NCBI GenBank assembly: GCA_965223545.1
Contig: OZ245006.1
Coordinates: 5,376,001 to 5,440,000 of the forward strand
Length of the DNA stretch: 64,000 bases
Direction: 5' to 3'
From: Planctomycetota bacterium
Lineage (GTDB): Bacteria > Planctomycetota > UBA1135 > UBA2386
Below the pieces are notes generated by a model. The model was not told where the DNA came from, did not search any database, and worked only from the letters and a program-made list of their open reading frames with translations. The position numbers and the translations under genes are program-made. Below, piece after piece: positions 571 to 59,076 of this stretch (positions are counted from its first letter, which is position 1; every line of letters starts with the position of its first letter).

Positions 571-1881
571 GTGTCCGCATCGCCGCGTTTCTCGATCGCC
601 GTCGCCATCATCGCGGCCGCGCTGTCGGCACCGGCCGGCGCGCAGAGCTGCTACGCCGGTCCGCCGGTTTCCATCGGCAGCATCACGGTGGTCGCCCGGG
701 GGCTGCCGGCGTCGACCCGCATGCCCAACAGCACGGTCGACGCGCTCACCGTGCACTGCCGCGACTTGCCGGACATCGGTGTGTTGCTGCAGGTCACGCC
801 GCCGCCTGCGGGAGTCAGCGAGCGGGGTACCGTCGTGCTCGGTTCGGGAGCGCTCGGCACGACGTTCTACAGCGCCGAGACCAACGGCTTCCCGTTGGCC
901 CTCGCGCTGCACCAGCTCGGGTTTCGCGTCGTCGACCGCGCCTGGGTGCCCGGTTGGTTCACCAGTGCTGCCGGCCTGCGCAAGCAGTCGTGCCGCTACG
1001 GTACCCTGCTGGATCACGTGTTTCGCACCTATCACGGCACCGGTGCGTTCTGTGCTCTGGGTAGCTCGGGCGGCTCGGCCGAGCTCGCCTACGCCTTGAC
1101 CACCTGGCGCGCGGGCGAGTACCTGGACGTTGGCGTCATGGTCGGCGGACCGCCGACCTCGCGGTTGGATCTGTCGTGCCAACGGCCACCCTCGGCGGCT
1201 TGGCTGGGACAGTGCGCGGCGGTGACGCCAGCGAACGTCCTGGAGTGCGCGCCGCAGTCGTGCGAGCTGATCACCGGCTTCGGTCTGTGCACCGCGTGTG
1301 CGGCGACTCCATCCGCAACCGAGCTGCGGGAGGACAGCGTGCTGCACTCGGCGGCGGTCTTGGACTACCCGAGAACGCGCGTCCACTTGGTCGAGGGTGC
1401 GGCCGACTGCTGGGGCACGGTGCCGTCGGCGATGCTGTTCTACAACGCCGTGCAGAGCGAGAAGGTGGTCGAGTTCGTGCCGAAGACCAACCACTTCGTT
1501 GCCGCGACCCAGCAGGGGCTCGACGCGATGCTGCGCGCCGTGGTCGGCGGCGCTGCGTCGCGCCCGGGGCCGGCAACCTTGGCCTATCGCGACTGGCCGC
1601 AGCTCGGCGGTGTCGCCCAGTTCGACCTCCACGGCCAGCCTGGCGACGGTTTCGCGGTGATCGTTGGCACGCAGACCGCACTCGCCTCGGTGCCGCCCTA
1701 CGGTTGGGTGTTCGTCGGCAATCCGCTGCTCCAGGGCTTCGGCGCGGTCGACGCATCGGGGCGCGGCTCGTTCTCGGTCGGCGTGCCGCCCTTGACCGCT
1801 CTACTGGGCCTGGAGATCTACCACCAGGCGATCATCGGCGGTGTGCTGACCAACTTGGTGCGCTTTCAGCTGCTGCCCTGA
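571..1881 (+). CDS. Secreted Cys-rich alpha/beta-hydrolase-fold protein with C-terminal accessory domain
   Basis: GTG at 571 preceded by GGAG; signal peptide (…ALSAPAGA-Q); GSSGG nucleophile elbow; candidate Asp (GAADC) and His (TNHF); C-terminal VP..LLG..YHQ..LTN module. Confidence 0.6.
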   Translation: MSASPRFSIAVAIIAAALSAPAGAQSCYAGPPVSIGSITVVARGLPASTRMPNSTVDALTVHCRDLPDIGVLLQVTPPPAGVSERGTVVLGSGALGTTFYSAETNGFPLALALHQLGFRVVDRAWVPGWFTSAAGLRKQSCRYGTLLDHVFRTYHGTGAFCALGSSGGSAELAYALTTWRAGEYLDVGVMVGGPPTSRLDLSCQRPPSAAWLGQCAAVTPANVLECAPQSCELITGFGLCTACAATPSATELREDSVLHSAAVLDYPRTRVHLVEGAADCWGTVPSAMLFYNAVQSEKVVEFVPKTNHFVAATQQGLDAMLRAVVGGAASRPGPATLAYRDWPQLGGVAQFDLHGQPGDGFAVIVGTQTALASVPPYGWVFVGNPLLQGFGAVDASGRGSFSVGVPPLTALLGLEIYHQAIIGGVLTNLVRFQLLP

Positions 1882-2621
1882 CAGCGCCGCCGGGAGAACG
1901 CCGGCAGTCCGTCGTCGAACACCAGCGCCGCGATCTCGCGCGCCGGCACCGCGGCGGGGAGCAGCGCGCCGTCCTCGTGCAGGGCGACGAACCGCGCGCG
2001 GCGCGGAAAGCTCTTCGCGTCACTGGCGCGCAGCTGCTCCTGCATCGCGGTTGCGACGACCCCCGGCGCAAAGCTCACCACCGCGATGTCGCGGTCGCCG
2101 AGATCGGCGACCTCGGCGCACTCCGCGCCCAGCACCGCACCCGCCATGTCGAGGCCGGCCTTGGTGGCGCAGTACAGCGACCACGCCGGGTAGGGGTTCT
2201 GTGCAGCACCGCTGGAGATGTCGATGATGCGCAGCCGGCAGCCGGGCTCGGTGAGCCGCAACATCAGTCCGTGCAGGTACAGCGGCACCGCGAGATTGAG
2301 CACCGCACCGCGCACGAGCGTGTCGAGCTCGGTCGCGGCGACCGGCGCCAGCCCGAGCAGCGCGGCGTTGTTGACCAGCGCGACGCGGTCCCTGCCGGCG
2401 AGGGACCCGCGCAGCGGTTCTGTTGCCAGAGTGCGGCGGACCGCTTCGACGTCGCTGAGGTCGCAGACCACGTGGGAATAGCGTTCATGCGCGGTGAGCG
2501 CTGCCGGCGCTTCGCCGCGGGCGACGCCGAGGACCTCGCAGCCACGGTCCAGCAGCGCCTCGGCCACCGCTTGGCCGATGCCCCGCGACGTGCCGGTGAT
2601 GAGGACGAACGGTGCTTTCAC
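1866..2621 (-). CDS. SDR family oxidoreductase (benzil/sepiapterin reductase-like)
   Basis: TGTSRGIG NAD(P)-binding motif, VNNAA, SSGAA, YCATK (YxxxK), APGVV; start moved to GTG 2621. Confidence 0.85.
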   Translation of the reverse strand: MKAPFVLITGTSRGIGQAVAEALLDRGCEVLGVARGEAPAALTAHERYSHVVCDLSDVEAVRRTLATEPLRGSLAGRDRVALVNNAALLGLAPVAATELDTLVRGAVLNLAVPLYLHGLMLRLTEPGCRLRIIDISSGAAQNPYPAWSLYCATKAGLDMAGAVLGAECAEVADLGDRDIAVVSFAPGVVATAMQEQLRASDAKSFPRRARFVALHEDGALLPAAVPAREIAALVFDDGLPAFSRRRCQGSS

Positions 2622-2635
2622 GCGGCGCTGCTCGC

Positions 2636-3850
2636 TCAAAGGGTCCAGCTCGTCGCCGCGGTCACTTGCCGGAACAGCGTCGGCCAGGCCGGGTCGAGAG
2701 TGACCGCGGCGGCGTGCACGGTGACGCCTTGCAGTGCCGCGAGGTTGGGCAGATTGAGCACCGGTGTGCCCTTGCCCTGACCATCGAGGAGGCCGACGAA
2801 GCCGGCGAACGCCGGGGCACCGCTCAGGGACAGCTGGAACAGGGCGTCGGCCGCCAACGGCAGCGTGCGGCCCCGTGGGAGGGGGATCGCCGGGGCCTGC
2901 GCCAACGCCATGCCGGTCGCATACGCCAGTCCGGGCTCGTGAGGGCTGTCCACGGTGAACGGATACGGCGTGCCCAGGGTTGGCGACCCGGTGGTCAGCA
3001 GCGAGGCGCTGGGCAAGAACGCGACGCTGCGCGGCACGAGACTCGACCCCGGCGCCGCGGTGCGCAGCCAGGTGCCGTCCGGCTTCAGCCAGACGACCTT
3101 GTGGGTGAAGAAGCTCGCGCTGACCAGCTCGCCGCCGGCAGTCACTGCGATGCCCTGCGGTCCGCTCAGATCGGCGTGGCGGAGTTCGCGCAGCGGTGCG
3201 CCGGCCAGATCGAAGACGACGATGTTGTTCGAACCGCCGCCGGCGACGAACAGCTCGTTGTTCCACACCGCCAGCCCCATGGGGCTGGAAAGGCCGAAGC
3301 CGGTGGCGTCGAACCGCGCGGTGCCGGTGCTGTCGAAGTAGACCACCGTGCCGTTGCCCGCGCTCGCCGCGAAGAACGATCCATCCGGCAACAGCGCCAC
3401 GCAGTTGGTGAAGCGCAGCTTGGGATCGGCGAAGGTGCGGACCAGCGTGCCGTCGGGGCGGAACTCACCGACGTTGCTGGAGCTGAAGCCGGCGACCAGG
3501 AGGTTGCCATTGGTGCGGAGTGCGATTCCCGTGGGGCCGACGACCGGCCCGGTGGCGAACCGGCGCACCAGCTGGAGGCGGCGGTCCAGCTCGAGCACTT
3601 CACCGGAGTTCTGTGAGGCCACGTAGACCGTGCCAGTCGGCGACACGGCCAGGCCGCGCGGGTGCGCCAGGCCGGGGAGCGGCAGAGATGCCAGCTCGGT
3701 CCCTCCGAAGTCGAGGCGCAGGAGCCGGTCGTTGCCCGAGCTGGAGACCAGCAGGTCCCCGGTGGTGGCCGGCGGGAGCGTCTGTCCGGCCGCGGCGAGC
3801 GCGAGCAGCGCGGCAGCGGTTGCGGCGGTGATGGGCGCGGGATTCGGCAT
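2636..3850 (-). CDS. Secreted NHL-repeat/beta-propeller protein with C-terminal accessory domain
   Basis: Signal peptide; repeated P.G[IL]A....G.L.V units (HPRGLAV, GPTGIAL, SPMGLAV, GPQGIAV). Confidence 0.75.
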   Translation of the reverse strand: MPNPAPITAATAAALLALAAAGQTLPPATTGDLLVSSSGNDRLLRLDFGGTELASLPLPGLAHPRGLAVSPTGTVYVASQNSGEVLELDRRLQLVRRFATGPVVGPTGIALRTNGNLLVAGFSSSNVGEFRPDGTLVRTFADPKLRFTNCVALLPDGSFFAASAGNGTVVYFDSTGTARFDATGFGLSSPMGLAVWNNELFVAGGGSNNIVVFDLAGAPLRELRHADLSGPQGIAVTAGGELVSASFFTHKVVWLKPDGTWLRTAAPGSSLVPRSVAFLPSASLLTTGSPTLGTPYPFTVDSPHEPGLAYATGMALAQAPAIPLPRGRTLPLAADALFQLSLSGAPAFAGFVGLLDGQGKGTPVLNLPNLAALQGVTVHAAAVTLDPAWPTLFRQVTAATSWTL

Positions 3851-3942: not shown

Positions 3943-4968
3943 ATGCGCAAGCCCGTCATCCTGATCACCGGCGCCAACGGCGAGATCGGCCACGGCCTGA
4001 TCGAGCACTGCCAGCAGCTGCCGGAGCACGAAGTCGTCGCCTTGGACCTGCGACCCCTGGATTCCGCCCTGGCCGCCGGCTGTGCCGCCACCATCGTCGG
4101 CGACATCCTGGACGAGGATCTGCTACAGCGGCTGGTCAGCGAGTACGAGATCCACCAGATCTTCCACCTCGCGGCGCTGCTCAGTACCCGTTCCGAGTAC
4201 ACCCCGGTGCAGGCGCACCGCGTCAACGTCAACGGCACCCTCAACCTGCTGCAGCTGGCGCACGAGCAGGCGCGCTGGCACGGCCACACGGTCAAGTTCC
4301 TGTTCCCGAGCTCGATCGCGGCCTACGGGCTGCCGAGTCGGGCCGCCAAGGACGACGCCGGTCGAGTGCGCGAAGACGAGTTCAACGTGCCGACCACGAT
4401 GTACGGCTGCAACAAGCTCTACTGCGAGCAGCTCGGGCGCTACTTCACGCAGCACTTTCGCCAGCTGGCCGCCGACCCGGCGCCCAGCGGGGTCGATTTC
4501 CGCGCGCTGCGGTTTCCGGGCTTGATCAGCGCGGCCACGGTGCCGTCGGGCGGAACCAGCGACTACGGGCCCGAGATGTTGCACGCGGGCGCCTCGGGCG
4601 AGGCCTACTCGTGCTTCGTCGACGCCGGCGCCTACTTGCCGTTCATGGCGATGCCGGACGCGATCCGATCCCTGTTGATGCTTGCGGCGGCGCCGGCTGA
4701 AGGGTTGAGCCAGCGGGTGTACAACGTCGGCGCGTTCTCCAAGTCGGCGGCGCAGATCCGCGATGTCGTCGTCGCGGCGTTTCCGGATGCGCGCATCGAC
4801 TTCGTCCGCGACGACGCGCGCGCCGACATCGTCGACAGCTGGCCGGCCGACGTCGACGACGGCGCCGCGCGGCGGGATTGGGGCTGGGTGCCGGATTACG
4901 ATTTCGAGCGCGCGTTCGAGGAGTATCTGATCCCCGAGGTCGGCCGGCGCTACGGGCGCGAGCGTTGA
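3943..4968 (+). CDS. NAD-dependent epimerase/dehydratase family protein (SDR-type L-threonine 3-dehydrogenase-like)
   Basis: TGANGEIG, HLAALLS, PSSIA, YGCNK, GGTSDY and DSWP motifs match the SDR-type TDH subfamily. Confidence 0.8.
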   Translation: MRKPVILITGANGEIGHGLIEHCQQLPEHEVVALDLRPLDSALAAGCAATIVGDILDEDLLQRLVSEYEIHQIFHLAALLSTRSEYTPVQAHRVNVNGTLNLLQLAHEQARWHGHTVKFLFPSSIAAYGLPSRAAKDDAGRVREDEFNVPTTMYGCNKLYCEQLGRYFTQHFRQLAADPAPSGVDFRALRFPGLISAATVPSGGTSDYGPEMLHAGASGEAYSCFVDAGAYLPFMAMPDAIRSLLMLAAAPAEGLSQRVYNVGAFSKSAAQIRDVVVAAFPDARIDFVRDDARADIVDSWPADVDDGAARRDWGWVPDYDFERAFEEYLIPEVGRRYGRER

Positions 4969-12708: not shown

Positions 12709-14991
12709 TCAGCGGATGTCGACGGTGAGGCCGCCGGTCATCTGGGCGCCGAACGGGTTCGAGCCGGGGCTGACGTACAGCCACTGCATGTAGATCGTGC
12801 CGCTGACGGTGGACGGGATCGTCAAGCGTTGGTTGTAGGACGACGTCGGCAAGACGACGTTCAGCGTGGTCATGGCCTGCGTCGGGTCGACCAGCAGCGG
12901 GCAGCCTGTCATCCCGATGAAGCTGAGGTCGAGGTTGGTCTGGGCGCCGCCGATGAGCAGGACACCGTTGACCCCGCTGGGCGCACCGGTGATGCGGGCG
13001 ATGAAGTTTCTCGTGCCCGCCCACGGGAGGTTCGCGTGGTTGTTGGTGGCGCTGCTGATCGAAGCATTGCCGCATCCGGTGCCATAGGGGGCCGGCAGGT
13101 TGATCGCCGGGTAGGCGAGCTTGGTCGCCGAGACGACCGCGGTCGAAGCGTAGGCGATCGAGTACTCGTGGTTGTCGTCGTCGTAGGTGATCGACGGGTG
13201 GGCCGCGCCCGAGGTCGGCGTAATGCTCGCCGACTCGGCGATCTTGCCGTCGACGCCGATCCGATCGACGTAGGAGACCAGCGGCTGCGCCAACGTCTCA
13301 CTGGTCACGCAGGCATAGTGGCTGCGGGTTTCCCGGTCGTGGGCGACTCCGCCGAGCAGCAGAGCGCGGCCCTGACGCAGGCGCTCGTGTGCCAGGGAGG
13401 TTGGCAATGACGACTGAACACCCCACTGGAGCACCTGCACCCACGCTTCGGAGCCGGTGTTGCCGATCTGGGGAAACAGGTTGGCACGCTGCAGGTAGGC
13501 GATGCTGTAGTTGTCGAGACTGCCGGCAATGCGAGGCGCAAAGCTGTGCATCGCGTTGGCGAGATTGCCGAGCGAGACGTAGGAGTTCGAGCTGCCGTTC
13601 TGGTCGACGCGCGTCGCGAACACGTCCCAATCGTCCTGCGGGATGATCGTGTCGAGGCTCTGGAAGACGCACACCCAGTCGTCGCCCGAGGACTCGCGCT
13701 GCTCGTTGATGTCGGGGCGGTCGGTGTCCTTCAGCACGCTGGTGCTACTCACCGAGTAGTGTCGGATTGCACGGCCGGCGCGAACGTCGACCACGGTGGC
13801 GCGGATCGACGAGTTGTTGGTGTCGGGTTGACCGCTGTCGGAGCGGTAGACGACCAGGGCTTCGTCGCCGGCGAACCGGTTCGAGCAGCCGCCCACCGCG
13901 ATGTGGTGCGCCCAGTCGGTCGAGCGCAGCGCGACGATGCTGGTGCTGACCGAGAAGTTGCCGGCGTCGTGCAAATGGGCCCTGAGGTAGCCGATGTTGC
14001 TGGAGGGCACCAGGCGGTTGAAACCGATGACCCACCGCTGCGGTGCGGCGACGTAGGCCACGTCCATGCTGTCCGTGCTCCAGGACGCGGTGATGTCGGT
14101 GAACACCGGCGCGGACGGCGAGAAGTCGTCGTCCATCAAGTAGGCGTAGCCGTCGTAGTCGGCGCTGGAGACCGCGCGGGTGAAGACGATCATCAGCTGG
14201 CCGGTCTCGGCATCGCGCCCGATTTCGGTGTCGGCGGGGGTTGCGCCACCGGCGGAGATCGAGCGAGCGCTGAGCAGCGGATCGACGGTCAGCGGGAACT
14301 GGGCGTCGCGCACGGCGTCCGCGGCGAGCCGCAGCTCGACCTCGCCGGCGACGATCGTCGTGGTCATCGCCGTCTGGCGGCCGGCCGCGTCGATCGCGAT
14401 CGCCGCGCCGTAGCGGACACGCTCGCGGCCCGTAGCGTCGCGCAGCGCGAGCGCGCCGGAGCGCGGGGTCGCGGAGTCGATGTCGAGCTCACTGATCAGC
14501 TGGCCACGCACGACGAGATCTCCTCGCACCGAGCTTCCTTCCACGGCGGGCCGCTGCGCGATGACGAAGGTCTGCTCGACACCGTCGCGCCGCACGTCGT
14601 AGGCCTCCGTGAAGCCGGGATAGCGGTACTCGTAGCGCCAATCCTGAGCGTGCCCGCGCATCGCCTTCGCGGCGTCCGACGTCATCAGCTGGTGCCCGCC
14701 GATCGAGACGCCGGTGGTCCGCCAGCGCACCGGCAGGTTGCGCGGCGCGTCGGCACCGAGCACCGGGTAGAACACCATCCCGTCGTGGAACGACACCTTG
14801 TAGTCGGGGCCGGCGGCCCAAGTCCCGTAATCGGCAACGGCCTCGTCGGCACCGGTGTGCACGGCCACCATCCAGCGCGCGGCATCGATCGCCTGGACTT
14901 GCTCCAGGGTCGGTGAAGGGTTCTGGGCAGCCGGCGGGGCGATCGAGACGCTGCCAAGCACCATGAGCGAGATCAGGCGGTTTCGTTCCAT
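12709..14991 (-). CDS. Large secreted protein of unknown function with C-terminal accessory domain
   Basis: GAGGTG SD before ATG 14991; signal peptide; N-terminal domain ending LTVDP; beta-rich core; C-terminal YGTGC…IGMTGC…NPFG…TGGL module. Confidence 0.7.
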   Translation of the reverse strand: MERNRLISLMVLGSVSIAPPAAQNPSPTLEQVQAIDAARWMVAVHTGADEAVADYGTWAAGPDYKVSFHDGMVFYPVLGADAPRNLPVRWRTTGVSIGGHQLMTSDAAKAMRGHAQDWRYEYRYPGFTEAYDVRRDGVEQTFVIAQRPAVEGSSVRGDLVVRGQLISELDIDSATPRSGALALRDATGRERVRYGAAIAIDAAGRQTAMTTTIVAGEVELRLAADAVRDAQFPLTVDPLLSARSISAGGATPADTEIGRDAETGQLMIVFTRAVSSADYDGYAYLMDDDFSPSAPVFTDITASWSTDSMDVAYVAAPQRWVIGFNRLVPSSNIGYLRAHLHDAGNFSVSTSIVALRSTDWAHHIAVGGCSNRFAGDEALVVYRSDSGQPDTNNSSIRATVVDVRAGRAIRHYSVSSTSVLKDTDRPDINEQRESSGDDWVCVFQSLDTIIPQDDWDVFATRVDQNGSSNSYVSLGNLANAMHSFAPRIAGSLDNYSIAYLQRANLFPQIGNTGSEAWVQVLQWGVQSSLPTSLAHERLRQGRALLLGGVAHDRETRSHYACVTSETLAQPLVSYVDRIGVDGKIAESASITPTSGAAHPSITYDDDNHEYSIAYASTAVVSATKLAYPAINLPAPYGTGCGNASISSATNNHANLPWAGTRNFIARITGAPSGVNGVLLIGGAQTNLDLSFIGMTGCPLLVDPTQAMTTLNVVLPTSSYNQRLTIPSTVSGTIYMQWLYVSPGSNPFGAQMTGGLTVDIR

Positions 14992-35374: not shown

Positions 35375-37708
35375 ATGTCCGCCACCCTCGCTCTAGTCGT
35401 GCTCGCTGGTCTCTCCAGCGCAGCTCCACAGGACTCTCCCTACACCGCGCCCGCTGACGACCGCTTGCACCTTCGGTACAAGGCGTTCGACCCGGTCACC
35501 GACCGGCCGGCGATGCCGCTCGAGCTCCGCGCCCGCGCGGCGGGTCGGCTGTTCATCGTCCAGTTCCACGGCGCGTTGACCGAGGCCGGCCGCCAGAGCC
35601 TGCGCGACGCCGGTGCCGAGGTGCACACCTATCTGCCCGAGCGGGCCTACGTGGTGCGGGCGACGCGGGACGTGGCGGCCGCAATCTCGGGCTTGCCCGC
35701 GGTCCGCTGGGTCGAGGCTCTGCACCCCGCCTACCGCATCGACCCGGCGCTGATCGCTCCCACCCTGGATCAGGGTGCCGAGATGCCGACGCGCTACAAC
35801 GTGCTCGTCGTCGACTACCGCCAGGACGCGCCCGGGGTCGAGCGGTTCATCGGGGCGATCGGTGGGACCGTCGACCTCGCCGCGGGCGGCGGACCGCTGG
35901 TCGTCGCTACGTTGAGCCGCGGCCAGCTCCTACAGGTGCTGCACCACGACGGCGTGCTGTGGGTCGACCGGTGGGTTCCGGAGGAGCCGGACATGGACAA
36001 CGCCCGCCTGCAGACCGGGGCGGAGATGCTGCACGGGCTGGCGGTGCCGGTCGACGGCAAGGGCATCAACGCGCATTCGTACGACACCGGGTTCCAGATC
36101 AATCACCCCGAGCTGCGGGCGCGGGCGCCCTACCGGCAGACGCCGATCGTGGTCGGCGGCAACTCCGGTTCGGTTTCACACGGCACCAGTGTGATCGGCA
36201 TCATCGCGTCCGAGGGGCGTCGGGCGCGCGAACGCGGCCTGCTGCCATTCGCCCAGCCGCTGGTCACGGCGTTTGGCACGATGGCGCGCTATCAGCTGGC
36301 GCGCAATCTGCGGGATCCGCTCGGACCGTACAAGGCGCTGACCTCGACTTCGTCGGTCAGCGGGGGCTTGACCCTCAGCTACAACAGCGTTTCCTCGACC
36401 ACGGACCGGTGGATCTTCGATTTCGATCTGCTCTATACGCAGAGCCAGAGCAACCAGGGCAGCCGGTTCTCTCGGCCGGAAGCGTGGGCGAAGAACACCG
36501 CGAGTGTCAGCGGGCTGCAGCACTTCAACAACCCCGACCCCCTCGACGATCGCTTCGACCAGGGCTCGAGCCGTGGGCCGGCATCGGACGGTCGGATCGG
36601 GGTCACGTTCTGTGCGTACTTCAGCCGCATCAACACCATTACGAGTGGAAGTGGCTACACCGCGACCTTCGGTGGTACCTCGGGCGCGACACCGATGATC
36701 AACGGCCTCTGCGGGCTCTTGATCAACATGTTCACCGATGGCGAGTTCGGCTACCCGGGCGTCACGTGGCAGAACCGTTTCGGTGCCGAGCCGCACTTCA
36801 CCACGACCAAGGCGTTGGGCATGGCGACGACCCAGCCGATGCCGATCGCGCGCGGTGCGCGGGTCGAGCAGGGCTGGGGTCTGATCAACGTCGGTGATGC
36901 ATACAACGACCGCGACAAGATGCTCGTCTTGGACGAGGAGGATGTGCTCTCCCAAGGGCAGTCGCGCACCTACTTCGTCTTCTCGCCTGGCGGCCGCAAC
37001 CTCCGCGTGGCGATGACCTACGCCGACCCGCCGGCGTCGGCCGGCGCGACGATCCACCGGATCAACAGTCTGGATCTGCAAGTCGTGGCGCCCGATGGAA
37101 CCGCGTACTGGGGCAACAACGGCTTGACGGCCAGCAACGACAGCGCGCCGGGCGGCGTGGCGAACGACCGCGACACCGAGGAGTGTGTCTGGCTGACGAC
37201 CGCTCAGCGCGGCGTCTACCGCGTGGTCGTGAGTGCGCCGGCGATCCGCGCCGACGGCCACGTCGAGACCGCGGCCGTCGACGCCGACTTCGCGCTGGTC
37301 GTGCGCGGCATCGGCGGCGGGCGCGACACGTCGGGGATGGTGCTCGACGTGATCTCGAGCCAACCGGGGCAGCTCGACGTGGCCCTGTCCAACGTGCCGG
37401 CGGCAGGTTGGGCGACGGGGTGGACCTTGTTCTCGGCCAACACGCAGCGGCTGCCGTCGCTCGGCAACTTCCTCGGCATCGAGATCGATTCGCTGACCCT
37501 CGCCACCATCGGCCTCGCGCCGAGTGCCGGCAACGTGTTCTCGTTCACCAACGCCGGGCCGAGCGTCTACCCGTATGCCACCTTCCAGTTCCCGGCCGGC
37601 TTGGCACTCGCCCTGCAGGGGCTGACCTTCGACGCGACGACGGCCTTGCTCGATGGCCAGGGCAACGTCGTCGCGGTCTCCAACGTCGACCGGGTCACCG
37701 TGCAGTGA
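35375..37708 (+). CDS. S8 family (subtilisin-like) serine peptidase, secreted, with C-terminal accessory domain
   Basis: Signal peptide and propeptide; triad YDTG / SHGT / GTSGATP; oxyanion SQSN; EQGWG; galactose-binding-like domain (DLQVVAPDG.YWGN). Confidence 0.9.
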   Translation: MSATLALVVLAGLSSAAPQDSPYTAPADDRLHLRYKAFDPVTDRPAMPLELRARAAGRLFIVQFHGALTEAGRQSLRDAGAEVHTYLPERAYVVRATRDVAAAISGLPAVRWVEALHPAYRIDPALIAPTLDQGAEMPTRYNVLVVDYRQDAPGVERFIGAIGGTVDLAAGGGPLVVATLSRGQLLQVLHHDGVLWVDRWVPEEPDMDNARLQTGAEMLHGLAVPVDGKGINAHSYDTGFQINHPELRARAPYRQTPIVVGGNSGSVSHGTSVIGIIASEGRRARERGLLPFAQPLVTAFGTMARYQLARNLRDPLGPYKALTSTSSVSGGLTLSYNSVSSTTDRWIFDFDLLYTQSQSNQGSRFSRPEAWAKNTASVSGLQHFNNPDPLDDRFDQGSSRGPASDGRIGVTFCAYFSRINTITSGSGYTATFGGTSGATPMINGLCGLLINMFTDGEFGYPGVTWQNRFGAEPHFTTTKALGMATTQPMPIARGARVEQGWGLINVGDAYNDRDKMLVLDEEDVLSQGQSRTYFVFSPGGRNLRVAMTYADPPASAGATIHRINSLDLQVVAPDGTAYWGNNGLTASNDSAPGGVANDRDTEECVWLTTAQRGVYRVVVSAPAIRADGHVETAAVDADFALVVRGIGGGRDTSGMVLDVISSQPGQLDVALSNVPAAGWATGWTLFSANTQRLPSLGNFLGIEIDSLTLATIGLAPSAGNVFSFTNAGPSVYPYATFQFPAGLALALQGLTFDATTALLDGQGNVVAVSNVDRVTVQ

Positions 37709-38979: not shown

Positions 38980-39020
38980 AGCTGAGGAGCCTCCGACGAG
39001 TCGGGCTCTCAGGCGTTTTT
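38972..39020 (+). terminator. Probable intrinsic terminator
   Basis: Nested stem ACGCCTGA…GAGCC…CCGAC-GA-GTCGG…GCTC…TCAGGCGT followed by a T run right after the stop codon. Confidence 0.6.
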
Positions 39021-39068
39021 CGCCCCCCTGCTCCATTCGGCCGCGGCTCGCGCTACCGTGCGCCCAGC

Positions 39069-50522: not shown

Positions 50523-50575
50523 GGGGCTCGAGCAACCTCCTGTTCTTCGTTCATCGAACGCGAGCGCCGTCCAGC

Positions 50576-52330
50576 ATGAGACTCGGGATCATTGGAAACT
50601 GCGCCTACAGCGCGCTGATCGAGAACGGCGCGGTCAACTGGCTCTGCTGGCCGCGCATGGACAGCAGCTTCGTCTTCGGCTCGTTGCTGGACCGCGAGCG
50701 CGGTGGTGTCTTCGAGATCGCCGGCGTCGACGCCAGCTCGGTTCGGCAGGAATACGTGGAGAACACCAACGTGCTGCGCACGGTGTTCGATTCCCCCACA
50801 GGGTCGTTCGAGGTCATCGATTTCGCTCCCCGCTTCCAGCAGTACGATCGCTACTTCAAGCCGACGATGCTGGTGCGGCTGATGCGTCCGTTGGACGGCG
50901 AGCCGTTGGTGCGCGTCCGTTGTCGGCCCAAGGCGGACTACGGCCGTGGCGAGGTCTCGAGCTACACCGCCAGCAACCACATCGAGTATCTCGGGTTGCC
51001 GGCGCCGGTGCGGCTCACCACCAACGTGCCGCGCACCTACGTCGCGGAGGAGCAACCGTTCGTCCTCAACCGGCCGCGGCATTTGGTGTTGACGTGGGGC
51101 CAGCCCCTGGAGTCGTCGCTAGAGGAGACCAGCGAGAGCTTCTTGGCGCGGACGACGGAGTACTGGCGGCGGTGGGTCAAGAACGCGCGCATCCCGCGTG
51201 ACTACCAGGAGCACGTGATCCGCTCGGCGCTGGTCCTCAAGCTGCACCAGTACGAGGACACCGGCGCCATCATCGCGGCGACGACCACCAGCTTGCCCGA
51301 GTTCCCCGGCTCCGGCCGCTGCTGGGACTACCGCTACTGTTGGCTGCGCGACGCCTACTTCTCGCTGAACGCGTTCGAGCGCTTGGGCCAAGCCGAGGAG
51401 ATGGAGCGCTTCCTCGAGTACTTGCACAACATCTGTGAGATCCACGGCGACGCGCTGCAGCCGCTGTACGCCGTCAACGGCGCCGCCGATCTCCGCGAGG
51501 AGATCCTCGATCACCTGTCGGGGTTCGACGGCGACGGTCCCGTGCGCATCGGAAACCAGGCGCACGAGCACGTGCAGAACGACGTCTACGGCGAGATGAT
51601 CCTCGCCATCAGCCGCTTGCTGATGGATACGCGCTTCAAGGGGTTTGCCGGCTTGGCGGGTGCACAGCGGCTGGTGTCGCGGCTTCTCGATCAGATCGAG
51701 GCGCGCATGGAGCAGCCCGACGCCGGTTTGTGGGAGCTCCGCAACCAGAGCCATCTGCACTCCTTCACGCTGCTCATGCACTGGGCCGGCGCGCAGCGCG
51801 CCGGCGACATCGGCCGCGCGATGGCGGCGCCCGAGCTGGCGGCACGCGGTGACGCGGTGGCGGCGACGGCGCGGGCCATCCTCGAGCAGCGCTGCTGGAA
51901 TCCGCACGTCGGCGCCCTGACCCAGGCTGCCGACCGGCCCAACCTAGACGCTGCGATGCTGCTGGCGGTGCAGTTCGGCTTCTTCGAACCCGGTGATCCG
52001 CGCGCCCTCTCGCACGTCGAGGCGGTGCACCGCGCCCTGGCTTCCCCCGGCGGCTTGCTGCGGCGCTACGACGTCGAGGACGACTTCGGTTATCAAGAGG
52101 CGGCGTTCACGGTGTGCTCGTTCTGGCTCGCCGAGTCGCTGGCGATCGTCGGCCGCGTCGACGAGTCGCGCGAGCTGTTCGAGCGCTTGCTGTCGCTCGA
52201 GAACGGCCTCGGCCTCTACAGCGAGGACATCCTGCCCGAGACCCGCGAGCAGAGCGGCAACTTTCCGCAGACCTACTCCCACGTCGGGTTGATCAACACG
52301 GCCTTCCGGTTGTCGCGCGACTGGATGTGA
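50576..52330 (+). CDS. Glycoside hydrolase family 15 (trehalase/glucoamylase-like)
   Basis: [47 protein letters not shown]. Confidence 0.93.
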
Positions 52331-52374: not shown

Positions 52375-52893
52375 ATGGGTTGCCTGCGAAGTGGTCTTCT
52401 GCGCGGTCCTCTTGCCTCGCTGCTGTGGGGGCTTGCCGTCTGTGGTGGGCTGCGGGCGCAGTCCGCCCCCGACGTCGGCCTGACGCTGGACCTCGGCCCG
52501 ACGCTGCCGGCATTCGTCGGCTACGACTGCGGCGCGTTTTCCTGCGCCGCGGTGCCGGCGGGACTCTGGGCGCCCGGCGCGTCGCGCACGTTCACCGGCT
52601 ACGGCGCTCCGGCCTCGCCGTGGGTCGTCGTCGGTGGGCTACCGGGGTTCTGCTTGCCGGTCGGCGGCATCGCCAACGCGCTGATTCCGGCGCCGCCCTT
52701 GTTCGTGATGCATGTCGGCTCGCTGGGGCCCGTGCTGCCGGGGAGCCCGTGCGCGCAGGGCGCCGAGAAGGTGCCGTTCACCATGCCGGCCGGGGCGCCG
52801 ACCGGGTTCGTGCTTTGCATCCAGAACGCGGCTCTTTCGCCGTCGCTGGGGCAGCTCGCGTTCGGCCCGGCCCTCGACGTGATCATCAGCTGA
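52375..52893 (+). CDS. Small secreted protein, essentially a stand-alone C-terminal accessory domain
   Basis: Signal peptide (…LRA-Q); ends MP….G..L.IQ…….LDVIIS; TACACT box 6 nt upstream of ATG. Confidence 0.6.
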   Translation: MGCLRSGLLRGPLASLLWGLAVCGGLRAQSAPDVGLTLDLGPTLPAFVGYDCGAFSCAAVPAGLWAPGASRTFTGYGAPASPWVVVGGLPGFCLPVGGIANALIPAPPLFVMHVGSLGPVLPGSPCAQGAEKVPFTMPAGAPTGFVLCIQNAALSPSLGQLAFGPALDVIIS

Positions 52894-52912
52894 TCGCGCG
52901 TGGGCGACGCGG

Positions 52913-55900
52913 CTAACGCGGGTTGGACGCCGCGGCGAGCCGTGCTTGCAGCGCTTCGTAGGCTTGCTGCATCACCGCTGGCGCGATGACGAGCTCCACC
53001 GATGCCGGCGACCCCGCCCCGACTTGGATCAGAAAACTGGGGTGCGGCATCGCGCTTTCGATCTCGAGGCCGTCGGCGCGATGCACGAGCGACAACGAGA
53101 CGCGGTACGCTCCCGGCCGCGGCGCCGCCAGTCGGACGCGGCCGGCTGCATCCACGTCGGCCTTGCTCGGCGCCTTGTAGCTGATCGCCGCCAGTGGCGA
53201 GGGGCGGGTCGGTCCCTCCCCTGGGTGCGAAGCCCTCAGCCTCGCGCGGAGGGCGAGGCCCTTCCCCGGCGTGGTTGCGCCCGTGATCGTCAGGTCGACA
53301 GGGTGTCCGCGCGACAACACCGCGGGCTCGTTTGCCTGGTCGATCGGCACGGCGATCGGAAAGTACCCCTCGCAGCGGAGCAGGAGCAGCTCGATCGGCA
53401 GTGACGATGGTACGACCAGCGGAGTGCCGGTCTTGCCGAGCGCGGTGCGCGCGCCGGGCGTCCATGCCCACACCGATGCCGTCAACGGCGCGCCATGCTC
53501 GTCCACCGCGCGCAACGGGATCGGGCGTACCAGATCGCTCAGGTCGATCGGGTCGAGGCCGGGTGTCGGCGTGTTCTTCCGGTCGGCAATGATGCCGCGC
53601 AGTCGCGCCAATTCGCGGCGCGGCGAGCCGGTCACGATCAGCGTGTGTGATCCCGGTTGGAGTCTGTCGATGTGGAACTCGCCGTCGAGGTCGATGATTC
53701 CGCCGACCCACCCAGTGGGTGTCTCCGATGGCGACCCCAGTCGGTCGGGCCAAGCTTCGACCCCGAGCCGGTCGAGGGCGATGCCCGAGTCGGAATGCAG
53801 CCGGCCCCGCAGCGAGGCCGCGGGTTCTGGGCGGAGCACGATTGCGCCAGCGGCCGGGTGCCAATGTTGCGGATCGTGGCGCCAGCCACGCGCACGTACC
53901 GCGAGCCAGGTCTCGGTCGCGGGGGCGTCCGGCATCGCGAACTCACCGCGCGTGCCGGTCGTTGCGACGCGCTGGTTCGTGACGTGTTCGAAGCCCGACG
54001 AAGACGCGTCGCTGCGGCGCATTCGCCACACGCTTGCGCCGGCGATCGGTGCCCCTTGGGGATCGAGGACCGTGCCGCGCAGCGCGGCGGTCGAGCGAGG
54101 CCACGCGAGCTCGCCGAGATCGAGAACCTGTTCCGGACTCCGTTCGGGCAGTGAAACGCGAAGCGTCCGCCGCTCCCCTTCGTGCTCGAAGAGAACGACC
54201 TGTGTCGCGATGTGCTCGATCGCCGTCGGCCAGTGCAGAGTGAAGCGCCCGTCCTGACCGGGATGGATCGCCGCGTGGAATACTGCTTCGTCGGTGGCTG
54301 TGAACAGCCGCACGGAGGCGCTGCCTGCCTCGCCAAGCGCATGCGGTAGTCGCCCCACAACTTTGGTCAACGAGTCCGACGAAGTCAGCCGCAGTTCGAC
54401 GACTTCCCCCGCCGTTCCCAGGCCCTCGTGACTCACGATGCTCGGCAGCGCGCCCGGCCAGGGCGAGTGCGCGGCGACGAATGGCACGCCGAGGCCGACC
54501 GCGGCGAACCGGGCAGTACCGTCGTGAGTGGGGGCGGGGACTCTGGTCTCTTCTGCCGGGCTGGTCGGCGCGTCGGGATACAGCCAGATCGGCGTGCCGT
54601 CGGGCGCTGGTGCTCCGTCGAGCGAGACGTGGACGGCCACGGTTCCGGTGGCCGGCAGCCGCAGCTCGAACGGCGTCTCGGGCGGCGCGCCGTCGTCGGG
54701 CAGCGCGGTGTGTACCGGCGCGCCAAGCGGGCCCAGTAGCCGTGCGCCGACCACGAGGCGCTCCGATCGGCCGTGGATCCCGCGAAACCAGGTCAGCTCG
54801 GCGGTGCCGTCCGCTCGCGTCCGAGCCGTTGAGAGTGGGTTGGTTCCGCCGTCATGGACCAGGGCCACTTGGATGCCAGGGCGCGGAGCGCCGTCCTCCC
54901 CGACGACGCGCACTGTTGCCCGCCGGACTGGCCAGAGTCGCAGGTCGAGCGGAGCCTCGACGTGCTGGCCATGGGGAACGCGGAGAACGCCGCGACGATC
55001 GCCGGACTCCCCGACCAGCATTCCGGGAGCACCGATCGGCATAGAGCAGGTTCCGAGGCCATCGATGGCCAGGCGCTGGCCGACACGAGTCGCCGCCCTC
55101 CACAAGTCGTCGCCCCGCGCTACTGCCCGCTCGTGCGCGCGGCGGAGCGCCGGTTGTTCCAGTCGTTGCGGGATCAACAGATGCACGGTGGCATCCGTCG
55201 CTGGCGCTCCCGTGATTCCGTCGACGATCCGCACGAGCGCGCCGCGGATCGGGTCCTGCGGTTTCGCGGCCGCGGTTCGGGTGCCGGCTGCCGGCGGTGG
55301 CGCTACGGGTGCCTCCCGCATCGCGACCATCGCGGCCTGACGGCCGGGCTCGGACGAGATCGTGGGTTTCGCGGGCTCCTCCCCCGGCAACGCGCACCAG
55401 AGTGCGACTGCACCCACAGCCAACACACCGGTCGCGGCGGGCGCGACGCTGGCTTTGCCGGCGGACGGTCGCAGGCTCGCGAACGCGGCGACCCACGCCG
55501 CGCGGTTGCCGTCGTTGGCAGCATCGAGGGCGCCGCGGAGTCGCTGCAACGCCCGCGTCGTCCGGCTGTAGACCGTGGCGCGGGGCAGGCCGAGACGGTG
55601 CGCCGCGGCTTCGGGCGTCAATCCCTCGTAGAAGCGCAGCAACACGACGTCCCGAAACGGCGACTCCAAAGCGAGCACGGCCTCGGCAAGGAGCCGTTGT
55701 TGCTCGAGTCGCGTGGCCGCTTCGGCCGCGCTCGGCGCGGCGCCCTTCTGCGCGTCCCCCGCGACCCTTTCGGCTCGTTCGCGTCGCGCGCGCCGCCTGC
55801 GGACATCGAGCGCGAGATTGCGGACCGTGCCCCGCAGCCACGCGCGACCCGCGCGGGTGGTCGGCTTGGTGCGCAGGGCGGCCAGCGCGGCATCTTGTGC

Positions 55901-56005
55901 CACGTCCTGTGCGGTGTCTCGGTCGTCGACGAGTCGGACCGCGAGCTGCGCCAGCCAGCGCGGCTCGGCGCACAGCACCGCGGTCGGTGGGAGTGGGGTG
56001 GACAT
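52913..56005 (-). CDS. ECF-type sigma-70 factor fused to a TM helix and carboxypeptidase-regulatory-like/Ig-like repeats
   Basis: Region 2 (TAQDVAQDA, AWL..VRN), region 4 (FRDVVLLRFYEG…LGL…TV.SR..RAL..LR), hydrophobic segment, repeats such as GTVLDPQGAPIAGA. Confidence 0.85.
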   Translation of the reverse strand: MSTPLPPTAVLCAEPRWLAQLAVRLVDDRDTAQDVAQDAALAALRTKPTTRAGRAWLRGTVRNLALDVRRRRARRERAERVAGDAQKGAAPSAAEAATRLEQQRLLAEAVLALESPFRDVVLLRFYEGLTPEAAAHRLGLPRATVYSRTTRALQRLRGALDAANDGNRAAWVAAFASLRPSAGKASVAPAATGVLAVGAVALWCALPGEEPAKPTISSEPGRQAAMVAMREAPVAPPPAAGTRTAAAKPQDPIRGALVRIVDGITGAPATDATVHLLIPQRLEQPALRRAHERAVARGDDLWRAATRVGQRLAIDGLGTCSMPIGAPGMLVGESGDRRGVLRVPHGQHVEAPLDLRLWPVRRATVRVVGEDGAPRPGIQVALVHDGGTNPLSTARTRADGTAELTWFRGIHGRSERLVVGARLLGPLGAPVHTALPDDGAPPETPFELRLPATGTVAVHVSLDGAPAPDGTPIWLYPDAPTSPAEETRVPAPTHDGTARFAAVGLGVPFVAAHSPWPGALPSIVSHEGLGTAGEVVELRLTSSDSLTKVVGRLPHALGEAGSASVRLFTATDEAVFHAAIHPGQDGRFTLHWPTAIEHIATQVVLFEHEGERRTLRVSLPERSPEQVLDLGELAWPRSTAALRGTVLDPQGAPIAGASVWRMRRSDASSSGFEHVTNQRVATTGTRGEFAMPDAPATETWLAVRARGWRHDPQHWHPAAGAIVLRPEPAASLRGRLHSDSGIALDRLGVEAWPDRLGSPSETPTGWVGGIIDLDGEFHIDRLQPGSHTLIVTGSPRRELARLRGIIADRKNTPTPGLDPIDLSDLVRPIPLRAVDEHGAPLTASVWAWTPGARTALGKTGTPLVVPSSLPIELLLLRCEGYFPIAVPIDQANEPAVLSRGHPVDLTITGATTPGKGLALRARLRASHPGEGPTRPSPLAAISYKAPSKADVDAAGRVRLAAPRPGAYRVSLSLVHRADGLEIESAMPHPSFLIQVGAGSPASVELVIAPAVMQQAYEALQARLAAASNPR

Positions 56006-56084
56006 CGCAGGGGAGTCGCCCGGCATCGGCCGGGTCCCCCCGAGTTTCTGCGATTCTGTCGATCCGTGCCGGGGCGCGTGCAGC

Positions 56085-57491
56085 TCAGCGCGCGCCGATC
56101 GTCAGTTGCAGGCCTCCCGTTGCGCTCGCGCCGGCCGGGTTCGCGCCGGCGTCGAGGACGAACGCCTGCCCGAACGTGGATGCGCCGAGCAGGCTCGGGT
56201 TGATGGGAATCGGCAGTTGCCAAGGAATGCTCGGGCCGGTGGCCACGGGCAGCGCGGCGTTCCATTCGGCCGACGTCCACAGGGAGCACCCGGTCATGCC
56301 GATCGGCGTCAGGGACAGGGGGAGCGGGCCGCCGGCCCAGGTCGTTGCCGAGCTGCCGAGCGCGGCGACGACCGGCGCGCCGGCGGGCACCGCGTCGACC
56401 TGGAGGGTGAGGGTGTCGCCGAGCCACGGCAGGGCGCCGGTCGGCGTGAGCTGCGGGGGGCCCAGCGCACCGGGACAGGCCAGACCATACGCGCGAACCG
56501 CGGCCGGGTTGACTGGCGCCAGCCACCACGTGTCGCCCAAGGGCGTGCGCCCGTCGTAGCCGCCGAACGACACGGTCCGCCGGCGCAGCCCGTCGTACGC
56601 GAGGGTCGGCCAGCCGCGGGCCGCCGGAGCCACTCCTGCGGCGCGCCGCCGCCAGGTCGTGCCGCTCCAGTCCCAGACGTCGCCTCGCCAGCGGCCGCCA
56701 TCCCAGCCACCGAACATGACGGTGCGCCGGCGCCCGGCGTCGTAGGCCATGCCGTGTGTCGATCGCGGTCCGGGTGCCGTCGCTGGCGTGCTTTGCGTCC
56801 AAGTTCCGGCACCACCGTCCCACTCCCACGTGTCGGCGAGCTGCCCGCGTGCGTCGCGCCCCCCGTAGAGCACGACGACGCCGCGGTGGAGGTCGTACGC
56901 CATGCCGGCGGAGTAGCGCGGCCCGGGGCTGTTCGCCGGCGTGCGTTGGGTCCACGTGCCGGCGCTGCCGTCCCACTCCCAAGTGTCGCCGGCGATGCAG
57001 CCGTTGGTGCAGTCGCCGCCGAACAGCACGACCCGACCGCGGGAGGCGTCGTACACCATGCGGTGCGCGAAGCGCGGCGAGGGGCTCGGGCCAGTTGCCG
57101 GCGTGCGGTCGGTCCATCGGCCGCTGCCGCCGTCCCACTCCCACGTCTCGGCACGACCGGCGCCGGCGTTCCAGTCGCCGAACAGCACCACCGTGCCGCG
57201 CTGCGCATCGTAGGCCAGCGCGTGCGACGAGTGGATGCCGGGACCACCGGTGGGCGAGCGTTGTCGCCAAGCGCTGCCGTCGAACTCCCAGACCTCGTCG
57301 AGATCGGCACTGCCGTCCCAGCCACCGGTGATCACGATGCGGTCGCGGCCGGCGTCATACGCGATTGCGTGGCTGCTACGCGGCGACGGCGGCGCGGTCG
57401 GCATGGCGTTGGTCCAGGCGAGCTGTGCTGGCGCTGGAACGCCGTAGGCGAGTGCGGCTGCGGTGAGAAAGACCTTGTGGTGTTGGTGCAT
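56085..57491 (-). CDS. Secreted kelch-repeat beta-propeller protein with C-terminal accessory domain
   Basis: Signal peptide; about six repeats P.PR..H.MAYD..R…VLFGG…DTWEWDG; C-terminal YGLAC…IGMTGC…NPAG…TGGL module. Confidence 0.85.
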   Translation of the reverse strand: MHQHHKVFLTAAALAYGVPAPAQLAWTNAMPTAPPSPRSSHAIAYDAGRDRIVITGGWDGSADLDEVWEFDGSAWRQRSPTGGPGIHSSHALAYDAQRGTVVLFGDWNAGAGRAETWEWDGGSGRWTDRTPATGPSPSPRFAHRMVYDASRGRVVLFGGDCTNGCIAGDTWEWDGSAGTWTQRTPANSPGPRYSAGMAYDLHRGVVVLYGGRDARGQLADTWEWDGGAGTWTQSTPATAPGPRSTHGMAYDAGRRRTVMFGGWDGGRWRGDVWDWSGTTWRRRAAGVAPAARGWPTLAYDGLRRRTVSFGGYDGRTPLGDTWWLAPVNPAAVRAYGLACPGALGPPQLTPTGALPWLGDTLTLQVDAVPAGAPVVAALGSSATTWAGGPLPLSLTPIGMTGCSLWTSAEWNAALPVATGPSIPWQLPIPINPSLLGASTFGQAFVLDAGANPAGASATGGLQLTIGAR

Positions 57492-57529: not shown

Positions 57530-57548
57530 TAGTTGTAATATACAACTA
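57530..57548. promoter_or_regulatory. AT-rich palindromic operator upstream of kelch gene
   Basis: TAGTTGTA-ATA-TACAACTA perfect 8-bp inverted repeat, about 40 nt upstream of ATG 57491. Confidence 0.6.
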
Positions 57549-57573
57549 AACACCGAGCAAGCGGGGCGGGCGC

Positions 57574-59076
57574 CTACTGCACGGTCGCGACCCAGACGTT
57601 GGTCAAGTGGCCGGATCCGGCGGGATCGAGGATCAGGGCCTGCGCTGCGACCGTCTGGCCGACGAGTCGCGGATCGGCGGGAATGGCCACCGTCACGCGC
57701 GCCGGTACGCCTGTGGACGGAACGACCGTGAGCGGAGCCAGCGGCACCAGAGTCCGCAGCTCGAGCCCGAGGCGGCCGAACGGCGTCGCCGTGGTTTGCT
57801 CCGCAACTGCCAGCAAGGGGATGGCGACGCGGAACAGGGGGGCGTAGCCGGGCTCGACGCCGATGCGCAGATCGAGGACGCCGCCGATGCTGGGTGTGCC
57901 GGCGATCTGCACGTGCCGGTGCTGGTTGAACCACGGCCGGACCGGTTGGTTGCCGGTGAACCCTCGTGCGCCGATGAACAGGTCCTGATCGCGATCGCCA
58001 TCGAGGTCGGCCGCCGCGAGATCGGCGGCCAACATGACCGGCGCCAGCATGCGTCCAGTGGCGTCGCGCAACGCACCGGTGCCGTCGTTGATGGCGAGGA
58101 AGGTCGGCGACAGCGGAGTGTTCGTCAGGCCGACGACGTCGGGGTCGCCGTCGAGATCCACGTCGACGGCGATTGCTTTGGCGACGTGGTGGAGCGGCAG
58201 CGTCAGTCGCGCGCTGCAGTCGCTGAACACGCCCGCGCCGTCGTTGCAGAAGAGCGCGTCGCCGAAGAAGCCGCCTCCGCCCACGTACAGGTCCGGATCG
58301 CCGTCGCCGTCGAAGTCGGTGACCACGAGCGAGTAGGCCAGCACCGGCCGTTGCGGCAGCTGCCCGGGGCCGGCGGGAGAGAACTCGGCCCGGCCGGAGT
58401 TGAGGTACAGCGCGACGCCCTGCGGAGCCATCGACGTGCCCGAGTTGGCGAACAGCAGGTCGAGGTCGCCATCGCCGTCGATGTCGCGCGCGGCCACCGC
58501 TTCGGTTTGATCGTCATCGGCGGGCAGACGTGGCGTGGCGTCGCGGAACCGGCCATTGCCGTCGTTGAGGAACAGGAGGTTCTGCGCGTTGCCGGAACGC
58601 GCGAACGCCGCGTCGAGATCACCGTCGCCGTCGAGGTCCGCCAGCGTGACGTCCGACGACAAGCCGAACGGCAGTCGCAGTCCCCCGGACGGAGACAGCC
58701 GACCGGTCCCGTCGTTGAGCAGCAACGCACTTCCGCTGCTCGCCAGGACGACGTCGACATCGCCGTCGCCATCGACGTCGCCATGGTCGAGCGCTGCAAC
58801 GATGCCTCCGGTGAGCGGCGTCTCGAAGCCGGCGGCAAACACACCGTTGCCGTCGTTGAGGCGGACGACCACCGCGTCCGCCGACGCGCTGCCCTCGACC
58901 CACACCGCATCGCCATCGCCGTCGCCATCGAGATCGACGACCGCCACCGCGAAGACCGACGCCGCCGGCACCGGGGATACGCGGTTGGCATACTGGTGAA
59001 ACTGCAGCTGCGCGCCGAGCACCGGCGCAAGCAGCGCGGTCGCGGACAGCACGGACGTTTGCATCGACAAAAGCAT
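57574..59076 (-). CDS. Secreted FG-GAP/VCBS repeat protein with C-terminal accessory domain
   Basis: GAGGA SD; signal peptide; seven D[LVIF]D.DG(D) calcium-binding repeats each followed by L.NDG.G; C-terminal IP…LVG….Q…D…LTN. Confidence 0.87.
   Translation of the reverse strand: MLLSMQTSVLSATALLAPVLGAQLQFHQYANRVSPVPAASVFAVAVVDLDGDGDGDAVWVEGSASADAVVVRLNDGNGVFAAGFETPLTGGIVAALDHGDVDGDGDVDVVLASSGSALLLNDGTGRLSPSGGLRLPFGLSSDVTLADLDGDGDLDAAFARSGNAQNLLFLNDGNGRFRDATPRLPADDDQTEAVAARDIDGDGDLDLLFANSGTSMAPQGVALYLNSGRAEFSPAGPGQLPQRPVLAYSLVVTDFDGDGDPDLYVGGGGFFGDALFCNDGAGVFSDCSARLTLPLHHVAKAIAVDVDLDGDPDVVGLTNTPLSPTFLAINDGTGALRDATGRMLAPVMLAADLAAADLDGDRDQDLFIGARGFTGNQPVRPWFNQHRHVQIAGTPSIGGVLDLRIGVEPGYAPLFRVAIPLLAVAEQTTATPFGRLGLELRTLVPLAPLTVVPSTGVPARVTVAIPADPRLVGQTVAAQALILDPAGSGHLTNVWVATVQ

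Follow-up and report, generated by a model that had tools for sequence, protein, structure and literature searches.

The 64,000-nucleotide stretch of DNA analysed here, called the window, comes from a Planctomycetota bacterium (GenBank assembly GCA_965223545.1, contig OZ245006.1, positions 5,376,001 to 5,440,000 of the forward strand). It encodes seven proteins whose C-terminal parts had been taken in a sequence-only reading for copies of one module appended to unrelated secreted proteins. The seven open reading frames (ORFs) were found at the coordinates given there and the quoted tails were exact. The copies are listed below; the E-values for the hydrolase-like, 760-aa, kelch and FG-GAP proteins were obtained with our core hidden Markov model (HMM) against the whole proteins.

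1531..1878, plus strand: C-terminal module of a secreted hydrolase-like protein (ORF 571-1881), short variant without cysteines; core HMM E 1.1e-10
2639..3034, minus strand: C-terminal module of an NHL/SGL beta-propeller protein (ORF 2636-3850), belonging to the "NHL-type" subfamily
12712..13095, minus strand: C-terminal module of a secreted protein of 760 aa (ORF 12709-14991), canonical form with two cysteines; core HMM E 3.9e-14
37331..37705, plus strand: C-terminal residues 653-777 of an S8 peptidase (ORF 35375-37708), likely a divergent module
52459..52890, plus strand: likely divergent stand-alone module, forming the entire mature part of a 172-aa protein (52375-52893)
56088..56507, minus strand: C-terminal module of a kelch protein (ORF 56085-57491), canonical form with two cysteines; core HMM E 3e-20; AlphaFold-modelled copy with a pLDDT (predicted local distance difference test) of 96
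57577..57927, minus strand: C-terminal module of an FG-GAP protein (ORF 57574-59076), without cysteines; core HMM E 4.9e-7

The cores of these proteins were assigned by Pfam and NCBIfam to the NHL/SGL, S8, kelch and FG-GAP families and differ as had been claimed, except that 52375-52893 consists of a signal peptide and the module and has no cargo. The name hydrolase for ORF 571-1881 comes from the sequence-only reading, and Pfam gave only a weak PhoPQ_related match. No Pfam match was obtained for the 760-aa protein, and the NHL cargo shows a weak similarity to ScyF, a PEP-CTERM protein. Signal peptides had been claimed for all seven. In six of them the N-terminus is hydrophobic and closes with [AG]-Q; in the S8 peptidase it is hydrophobic but lacks the AQ.

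When the window tails were compared pairwise, hardly any similarity was observed, the best pair being the kelch and 12709 tails (E 0.0025-0.023). Iterative HMMs seeded with the kelch, FG-GAP or hydrolase tail, however, led to one family of about 300 ORFs without any reversed decoy, and seeding with the NHL tail led to an overlapping subfamily. The claim of a common module was barely borne out by pairwise alignment but upheld by the profiles, which unite five of the seven tails. The motifs YG.xC, LPW.G, IGMTGC and NP.G...TGGL were present in both the 12709 and the 56085 tails. The literal pattern proposed for the module was, as coded, too narrow, matching 2/7 window proteins and 31/401 family genes, yet it was specific (0/5,215 other genes).

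The source genome was then searched with the core model, with reversed sequences as decoys, none of which matched at E<0.1. Among 69,420 six-frame ORFs 318 matched at E<1e-3, and 287 of these matches end at most 15 residues from the stop codon. The unfiltered search of 5,499 gene tails gave 375 matches at E<0.1. Since further rounds reduced the sensitivity (375, 357 and 353 matches at E<0.1), the round-0 model was retained. Core and subfamily models together found the domain in 401 of the 5,616 genes predicted with our own codon model (about 7%), again with no decoy. The copies share only about 20-40% sequence identity. The module had no match in Pfam or NCBIfam, tested with the seven window proteins and further carriers, and none among the PDB sequences (best E 0.1), in agreement with the earlier claim that it is not a catalogued family. 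The shared tail is a real, very large and uncatalogued domain family, and the hydrolase, NHL, 12709, kelch and FG-GAP tails belong to it. The NHL tail matched the core HMM with E 2e-6 when tested alone and with 4e-3 within the whole protein; its subfamily aligned to the core with an hhalign probability of 97.6%.

The S8 tail and 52375, already described as looser matches, were both missed by the core HMM (hhalign 14-16% and 1%, respectively). Among the S8-type tails of S8 homologues, 32/78 matched the core model at E<0.1 and 0/78 when reversed. The AlphaFold model of the S8 tail (pLDDT 95-98) has the same order of strands, hairpin and short helices as the kelch tail, and its residues 653-777 gave structural matches to immunoglobulin-like (Ig) and FN3 domains with Z 8.1-8.2; with the full S8 model, the matches were dominated by subtilisins. 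For 52375, which has two paralogues in the genome, the second-ranked ESM Atlas cluster (0.94) equals the top cluster of the kelch tail in length, size and taxon counts. Both are likely divergent members of the family.

The domain is about 125 residues long and was modelled for the kelch tail as an all-beta fold of nine strands. At the fold level this is a two-sheet Greek-key, Ig-like beta-sandwich with Z 7-9 to many Ig, FN3 and macroglobulin (MG) domains, and the S8 tail behaves alike. The wider structural search returned generic Ig/FN3/MG matches (best TEP1r, Z 8.9, root mean square deviation (rmsd) 2.6 over 90 residues; rank 50, Z 6.8) with identities of 4-19%, and none stands out. With Foldseek nothing was found in the PDB at E<=1e-3, and one weak row was for HBP35 of P. 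gingivalis. About 90 of the 140 modelled residues match Ig folds, and the 50 or so unmatched residues would, by our own reading of the model, largely form a hydrophobic insertion. The domain is more hydrophobic than its cargo (grand average of hydropathy +0.49 vs -0.09) and poorer in charged residues (8% vs 17%). The conserved positions are mostly Gly and Pro, together with Gln, Ser/Thr-Asn and Leu, and few aromatic residues are conserved. The two cysteines covary (both in 148 copies, only one in 37 and 12, neither in 116), which suggests an optional disulphide; the pair is predicted to form it. Of the structural relatives that the sequence-only reading had named for comparison, the Ig-like fold was recovered, whereas the titles of the type IX secretion system (T9SS) C-terminal domain (CTD) and FlgD_ig, like those of cohesins, lay outside the top 50, which does not exclude a likeness, and the all-beta model is unlike a dockerin.

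The carriers of the domain are predominantly exported proteins. An AQ-type signal peptide was called for 265/355 carriers, compared to 720/4,687 other genes and 25/1,500 shadow ORFs, and many of the carriers scored as signal-less show a signal peptide upstream of a misplaced start. The expectation of dozens to hundreds of copies on signal-peptide proteins was thus confirmed. The cargoes group into 95 clusters. Pfam analysis of 40 representative carriers identified kelch, FG-GAP, SBBP, RCC1, LVIVD, sulfatase, GSDH, beta-lactamase, di-haem peroxidase, PAD, reprolysin and amidase domains, and 18/40 had no match at 1e-5. The domain occurs on 2/223 genes with a lipobox, compared to 301/983 genes with an AQ signal, and on 1/263 polytopic genes. 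This polytopic carrier (C1:2680994-2682976; C1 denotes coordinates in the source genome) ends in the domain, its homologues are named arabinofuranosyltransferase, and the fusion is found in 7/120 of them. We take it to be a "GT-C" enzyme, a label for which Pfam gave no match.

The claim that the module is strictly C-terminal did not hold. In the source genome 325/356 copies are terminal, most of them ending 0-1 residues from the end of the model, 19 are followed by an extension of 30-45 aa and 12 by longer sequence; five of the 12 sit directly after the signal peptide. The non-terminal copies (31/356) are paralleled in the comparison genome G187, where 29 of 32 carriers have a terminal and 3 an N-terminal domain, and among the 150 best global matches (145 terminal, 5 N-terminal). 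About nine proteins consist of the signal peptide and the domain only, and no single dominant stand-alone gene was apparent among them. The domain is nearly always present in a single copy per protein. In the 19 carriers with the short extension (e.g. C1:7532015-7533124) this ends in a beta-strand-like stretch and may represent a domain insertion or serve as a donor strand; 15 of them share an unannotated N-terminal domain of about 180 aa. In the genomes G197 and G227, which have one or two copies of the domain, peroxidase-like proteins carry it internally, followed by a common C-terminal region of about 320 aa ending in WSR, possibly the tail of that lineage itself.

In a global search the domain was found in 34,631 clusters (50% identity, E<=1e-3), and the names of the homologues and the taxa in the Atlas indicate Planctomycetota, in line with the proposed taxonomic restriction. 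Among close genomes, 29/31 matched with one query. In a sample of the phylum with at most 14 candidates scored per genome, 67/301 genomes were positive; 6 had a single match and 61 at least 6. In 7/8 genomes of one family of the same order there are multiple copies of a sibling domain that is rich in cysteine and bears a W-x-R-D motif (hhalign 68%, E 5e-5); this form presumably also occurs in OM190-type genomes.

On orthologous cargoes the domain is exchanged for other tails. The 120 S8 homologues comprise 78 with an S8-type tail, 36 with the canonical domain, 2 with a tail that is dockerin-like by visible motifs and sub-cutoff matches, and 4 with another one. The second cargo is a carrier at C1:4672417-4684333, 67% identical to its G187 orthologue and assigned to PF28492 in the precomputed annotation. 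It heads an operon with a TonB-dependent receptor, DUF3450, ExbB/ExbD, TonB and a TPR protein, which is conserved in G187, and is the only domain gene whose neighbours are conserved between the two genomes. Its top 120 homologues carry the canonical domain (72), the cysteine-rich sibling (18), a dockerin-like tail called by the same signs (8), a short W-x-x-aromatic end (3) or another beta tail (6), and the remaining ones are borderline or truncated. The idea of an appended, exchangeable module is supported by the dockerin-like tails that stand in place of the domain. The three short ends read W-x-x-Y/F, possibly another terminal tag. At the level of genomes, the GC-type dockerin (NF041540) was found in 12/301; all 9 genomes with at least two copies are domain-negative, and one copy each was seen in two domain-rich genomes.

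The domain resembles the dockerins (type I, PF00404, and GC-type) in occupying the same slot on orthologous cargoes, with one per protein and many per genome, and in its position, which is not strictly fixed, as is generally known for dockerins; multi-copy forms of the two were not seen in the same genomes. Unlike a dockerin, it is an all-beta domain of about 125 aa and not an EF-hand-like repeat of 60 aa, and neither a sequence match nor the duplicated calcium-binding loop-helix motif (PF00404/NF041540) was found in it. With the T9SS CTD of Bacteroidota (TIGR04183/Por_Secre_tail) it shares the Ig-like sandwich at the end of diverse signal-peptide proteins and presumably also a similar cargo list and the rarity on lipoproteins. 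It differs in its greater length, the hydrophobic insertion, the cysteine pair and the N-terminal, internal and stand-alone copies. Models of the TIGR04183/PF18962 type had no match on the seven window proteins or, with Pfam, on 40 further carriers; the genome-wide search with TIGR04183, which was also empty, had no positive control. The PEP-CTERM, GlyGly-CTERM and MYXO-CTERM tails are likewise lineage-restricted and found on many exported proteins. These sortase-type signals consist of a short motif, a transmembrane helix and an Arg cluster, as described in 10.1101/2023.06.07.544157, whereas our domain is folded and globular, with beta strands up to its end in both alignment and model. In summary, the domain is deployed like dockerin tails or the T9SS CTD, yet it matches neither in sequence and departs from the CTD in position.

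We then searched for an export machinery or a binding partner. In the source genome (91% complete) the sortase/exosortase pair of models (PF04203, PF09721) had no match and their positive controls worked; rhombosortase and myxosortase were outside this search. There was no dockerin (PF00404/NF041540) in the source genome, again with a working control. Of the T9SS core (SprA, PorV, PorU, PorP) no component was detected; PorP, C25, SprA and TIGR04183 were not found in searches without a positive control. The PorV-family model, for which the control worked, gave one match of 24 bits (cut-off 90). This PorV-like barrel (C1:4588758) was rejected as a partner, being below the cut-off and without a counterpart in G187.

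For the comparison with G187, of which 2.31 of about 2.4 Mb were read, 938 reciprocal best hits were obtained, and 253 envelope-like shared candidates were passed through Pfam (149/158 with signal-like N-termini and 104/105 further hydrophobic ones). They included BamA, LptD, secretins, T2SSF proteins and the TonB system. No unannotated outer membrane barrel, sortase-like protein or T9SS core component was recognised among the 253 scanned. Since 615/1,861 G187 genes had no BLAST hit in the source genome, a fast-evolving partner could escape detection.

In the gene neighbourhoods of the source genome no partner family stands out. A family of 29 extracytoplasmic function (ECF) sigma factor fusions adjoins carriers in 10/29 cases, compared to 548/5,220 (p 5e-4, uncorrected), which we regard as an effect of variable regions because transposases were similarly enriched. 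In the window, the kelch and FG-GAP carriers lie between two ECF sigma factors (52913-56026 and 59124-62267, both on the minus strand) that bear long fused extensions of the CarboxypepD_reg type.

Two secretin clusters were examined as candidate machines, the source genome having six secretin matches. At C1:7078860-7090901 twin secretins enclose ExbB, two ExbD and two TPR proteins. At C1:1836502-1853714 a cluster resembling type II secretion systems (T2SS) and type IV pili contains PilM, pseudopilins, a protein of 1,751 aa whose N-terminus is pilin-like and for which Pfam gave no match, and a 489-aa exported protein without annotation. The distance of this cluster from the twin secretins is no more than about 30 kb in several genomes. 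The twin secretin was present in 60/61 genomes with multiple domain copies, in 217/301 genomes of the phylum sample at E<=1e-40 and, by hand count, in about 60/240 of the others at E<=1e-120; the 489-aa protein was present in 60/61, in 83/240 of the others and in 143/301 overall. Neither cluster holds a domain gene, and one such gene is found beyond the end of the T2SS-like cluster, two genes away and on the opposite strand. As domain-specific partners both proteins were rejected: they co-occur with the domain but are common in genomes without multiple copies. The clusters are compatible with a role but not implicated, and no partner was assigned because both machines also occur in many domain-less genomes. 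A dedicated translocon or sortase, which the sequence-only reading had proposed to look for, was not found.

The reading we favour, and to which we give about an even chance, is that the domain is not removed on maturation and, by means of its hydrophobic insertion loop, holds the protein non-covalently at the cell envelope. It is favoured because of the free position, the fusion to a membrane enzyme, the avoidance of lipoproteins and the exchange with dockerin-like tails. It also agrees with the hydrophobic, charge-poor composition, with the part of the fold left unmatched by Ig domains, with the lack of domain-positive genomes among those having two or more GC-type dockerins, and with the TonB-operon setting of the one carrier whose neighbours are conserved. 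The carrier would be exported by Sec, the domain would fold and form its disulphide in the periplasm and would stay on the protein after export, and the hydrophobic insertion would then attach it non-covalently to a lipid, polymer or receptor of the envelope. The docking site would most plausibly be the outer membrane; the side of it on which the cargo ends up is something we infer. Several points weigh against this docking. About 90% of the copies are at the extreme C-terminus, as a read-out signal would be, and a secretion signal would avoid lipoproteins just as well. Neither the neighbourhoods nor the G187 comparison nor the searches for machinery revealed a binding partner, and cohesin (PF00963) was absent from the source genome, where the control for it worked. 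The hydrophobic residues may, in the model, merely be buried under the insertion. The ML (MD-2-related) lipid-binding proteins, which made up the top rows of Foldseek, matched weakly (E>1e-3, TM 0.28-0.38, rmsd 9-13) and were outside the top 50 of the wider structural search. In addition, the signal peptides and lipoboxes were called by our own heuristics and not by SignalP, and the exclusivity of domain and dockerin at the genome level is confounded by kinship.

It is possible, though on balance unlikely, that the folded domain instead acts as an export signal wherever it is placed and is recognised in the periplasm by one of the two secretin-based machines. T2SS signals are conformational, and the six secretin matches and the presence of both cluster markers in 60/61 multi-copy genomes are consistent with such a role. 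Together with BamA, LptD and the TonB receptor, secretins were the outer membrane channels recognised among the envelope proteins common with G187, and the cargoes (PAD, SBBP, LVIVD, reprolysin, S8) are of a kind that we take to resemble surface or T9SS cargo. This explanation is weakened by the markers in the roughly 60/240 and 83/240 genomes without multi-copy domains, by the lack of a domain gene in either cluster and by the conserved fusion to an inner membrane protein, which cannot be secreted. A signal for a secretin machine and a docking module are compatible with each other. A combination of this kind, which we regard as doubtful, would make the domain the cargo tag of an undescribed surface-display system in deep-branching Planctomycetota. 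About 7% of the proteome would be directed by a position-independent Ig-like tag to the conserved twin-secretin/ExbBD or T2SS-like machine, passed across the outer membrane and anchored by the hydrophobic loop. If so, the same machine would accept dockerin-like or different tails in other lineages.

The generic Ig fold with its CBM/FN3-like structural neighbours, the free position and the internal copies kept in two genomes with only one or two of them would also be expected of an accessory domain, such as a carbohydrate-binding module (CBM) or a lipid-binding domain, that binds an external substrate or aids folding and has no role in attachment to the producing cell. We consider this quite improbable, as the domain is found on cargo from 95 unrelated clusters, peptidases, sulfatases, peroxidases and propellers among them, is nearly always single, has few conserved aromatics, is exchanged for dockerin-like tails and is followed by a further C-terminal domain in both low-copy genomes. 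Self-association or co-assembly into a surface layer, with stand-alone copies filling a lattice on which the cargo is displayed, is very improbable: the stand-alone copies, the hydrophobic, charge-poor composition and S-layer proteins among the weak Ig-fold matches fit it, and the identity of only about 20-40% between copies and the lack of an apparent dominant stand-alone gene do not. Least probable is a sorting signal that is cleaved from the C-terminus, as in T9SS CTDs or sortase substrates, and served by a translocon or transpeptidase of its own. The mostly terminal position, the Ig-like fold, the Gln at the predicted mature N-terminus and the T9SS-like cargo would agree with it. N-terminal, internal and stand-alone copies exist, however, the tripartite layout of motif, transmembrane segment and Arg is lacking, and none of the corresponding components was recovered: no sortase or exosortase with working controls, a PorV-family match far below its cut-off and without G187 counterpart, and no PorP, C25, SprA or TIGR04183 in the uncontrolled searches. 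Attachment fits better than a cleaved sorting signal because no dedicated translocon or sortase was found. The original proposal of a targeting or attachment signal for a secretion or display system is partly supported.

With 34,631 clusters, about 7% of the predicted genes of one genome and no entry in the copies of Pfam and NCBIfam searched, this is a very large unannotated family. Passages of PMC11495043 report Planctomycetota as rich in signal-peptide proteins of unknown location, and passages of 10.1101/817700 do not mention secretion systems, signal peptides or an S-layer. Full-text searches gave no paper describing the domain, subscription papers and bioRxiv supplements lying outside their scope. 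With an HMM of the domain, the proteins likely to reside in the envelope or at the surface could be flagged in many uncultured Planctomycetota. Nature itself provides constructs for separating anchoring from secretion in the N-terminal, stand-alone and membrane-fused copies, and the swap with dockerin-like tails offers a handle on why non-cellulosomal bacteria hold many dockerins.

Among the other genes of the window, those at 4878-9124 (plus strand), 46499-48223 (plus strand) and 48264-52330 presumably encode glycogen debranching and branching enzymes, an enzyme I-like protein of the phosphotransferase system, a trehalose synthase/phosphatase fusion and a GH15 protein. The gene at 38889-40238 (plus strand), two genes downstream of the S8 carrier, has no Pfam match and encodes a signal-peptide protein with a beta-barrel-like alternation.

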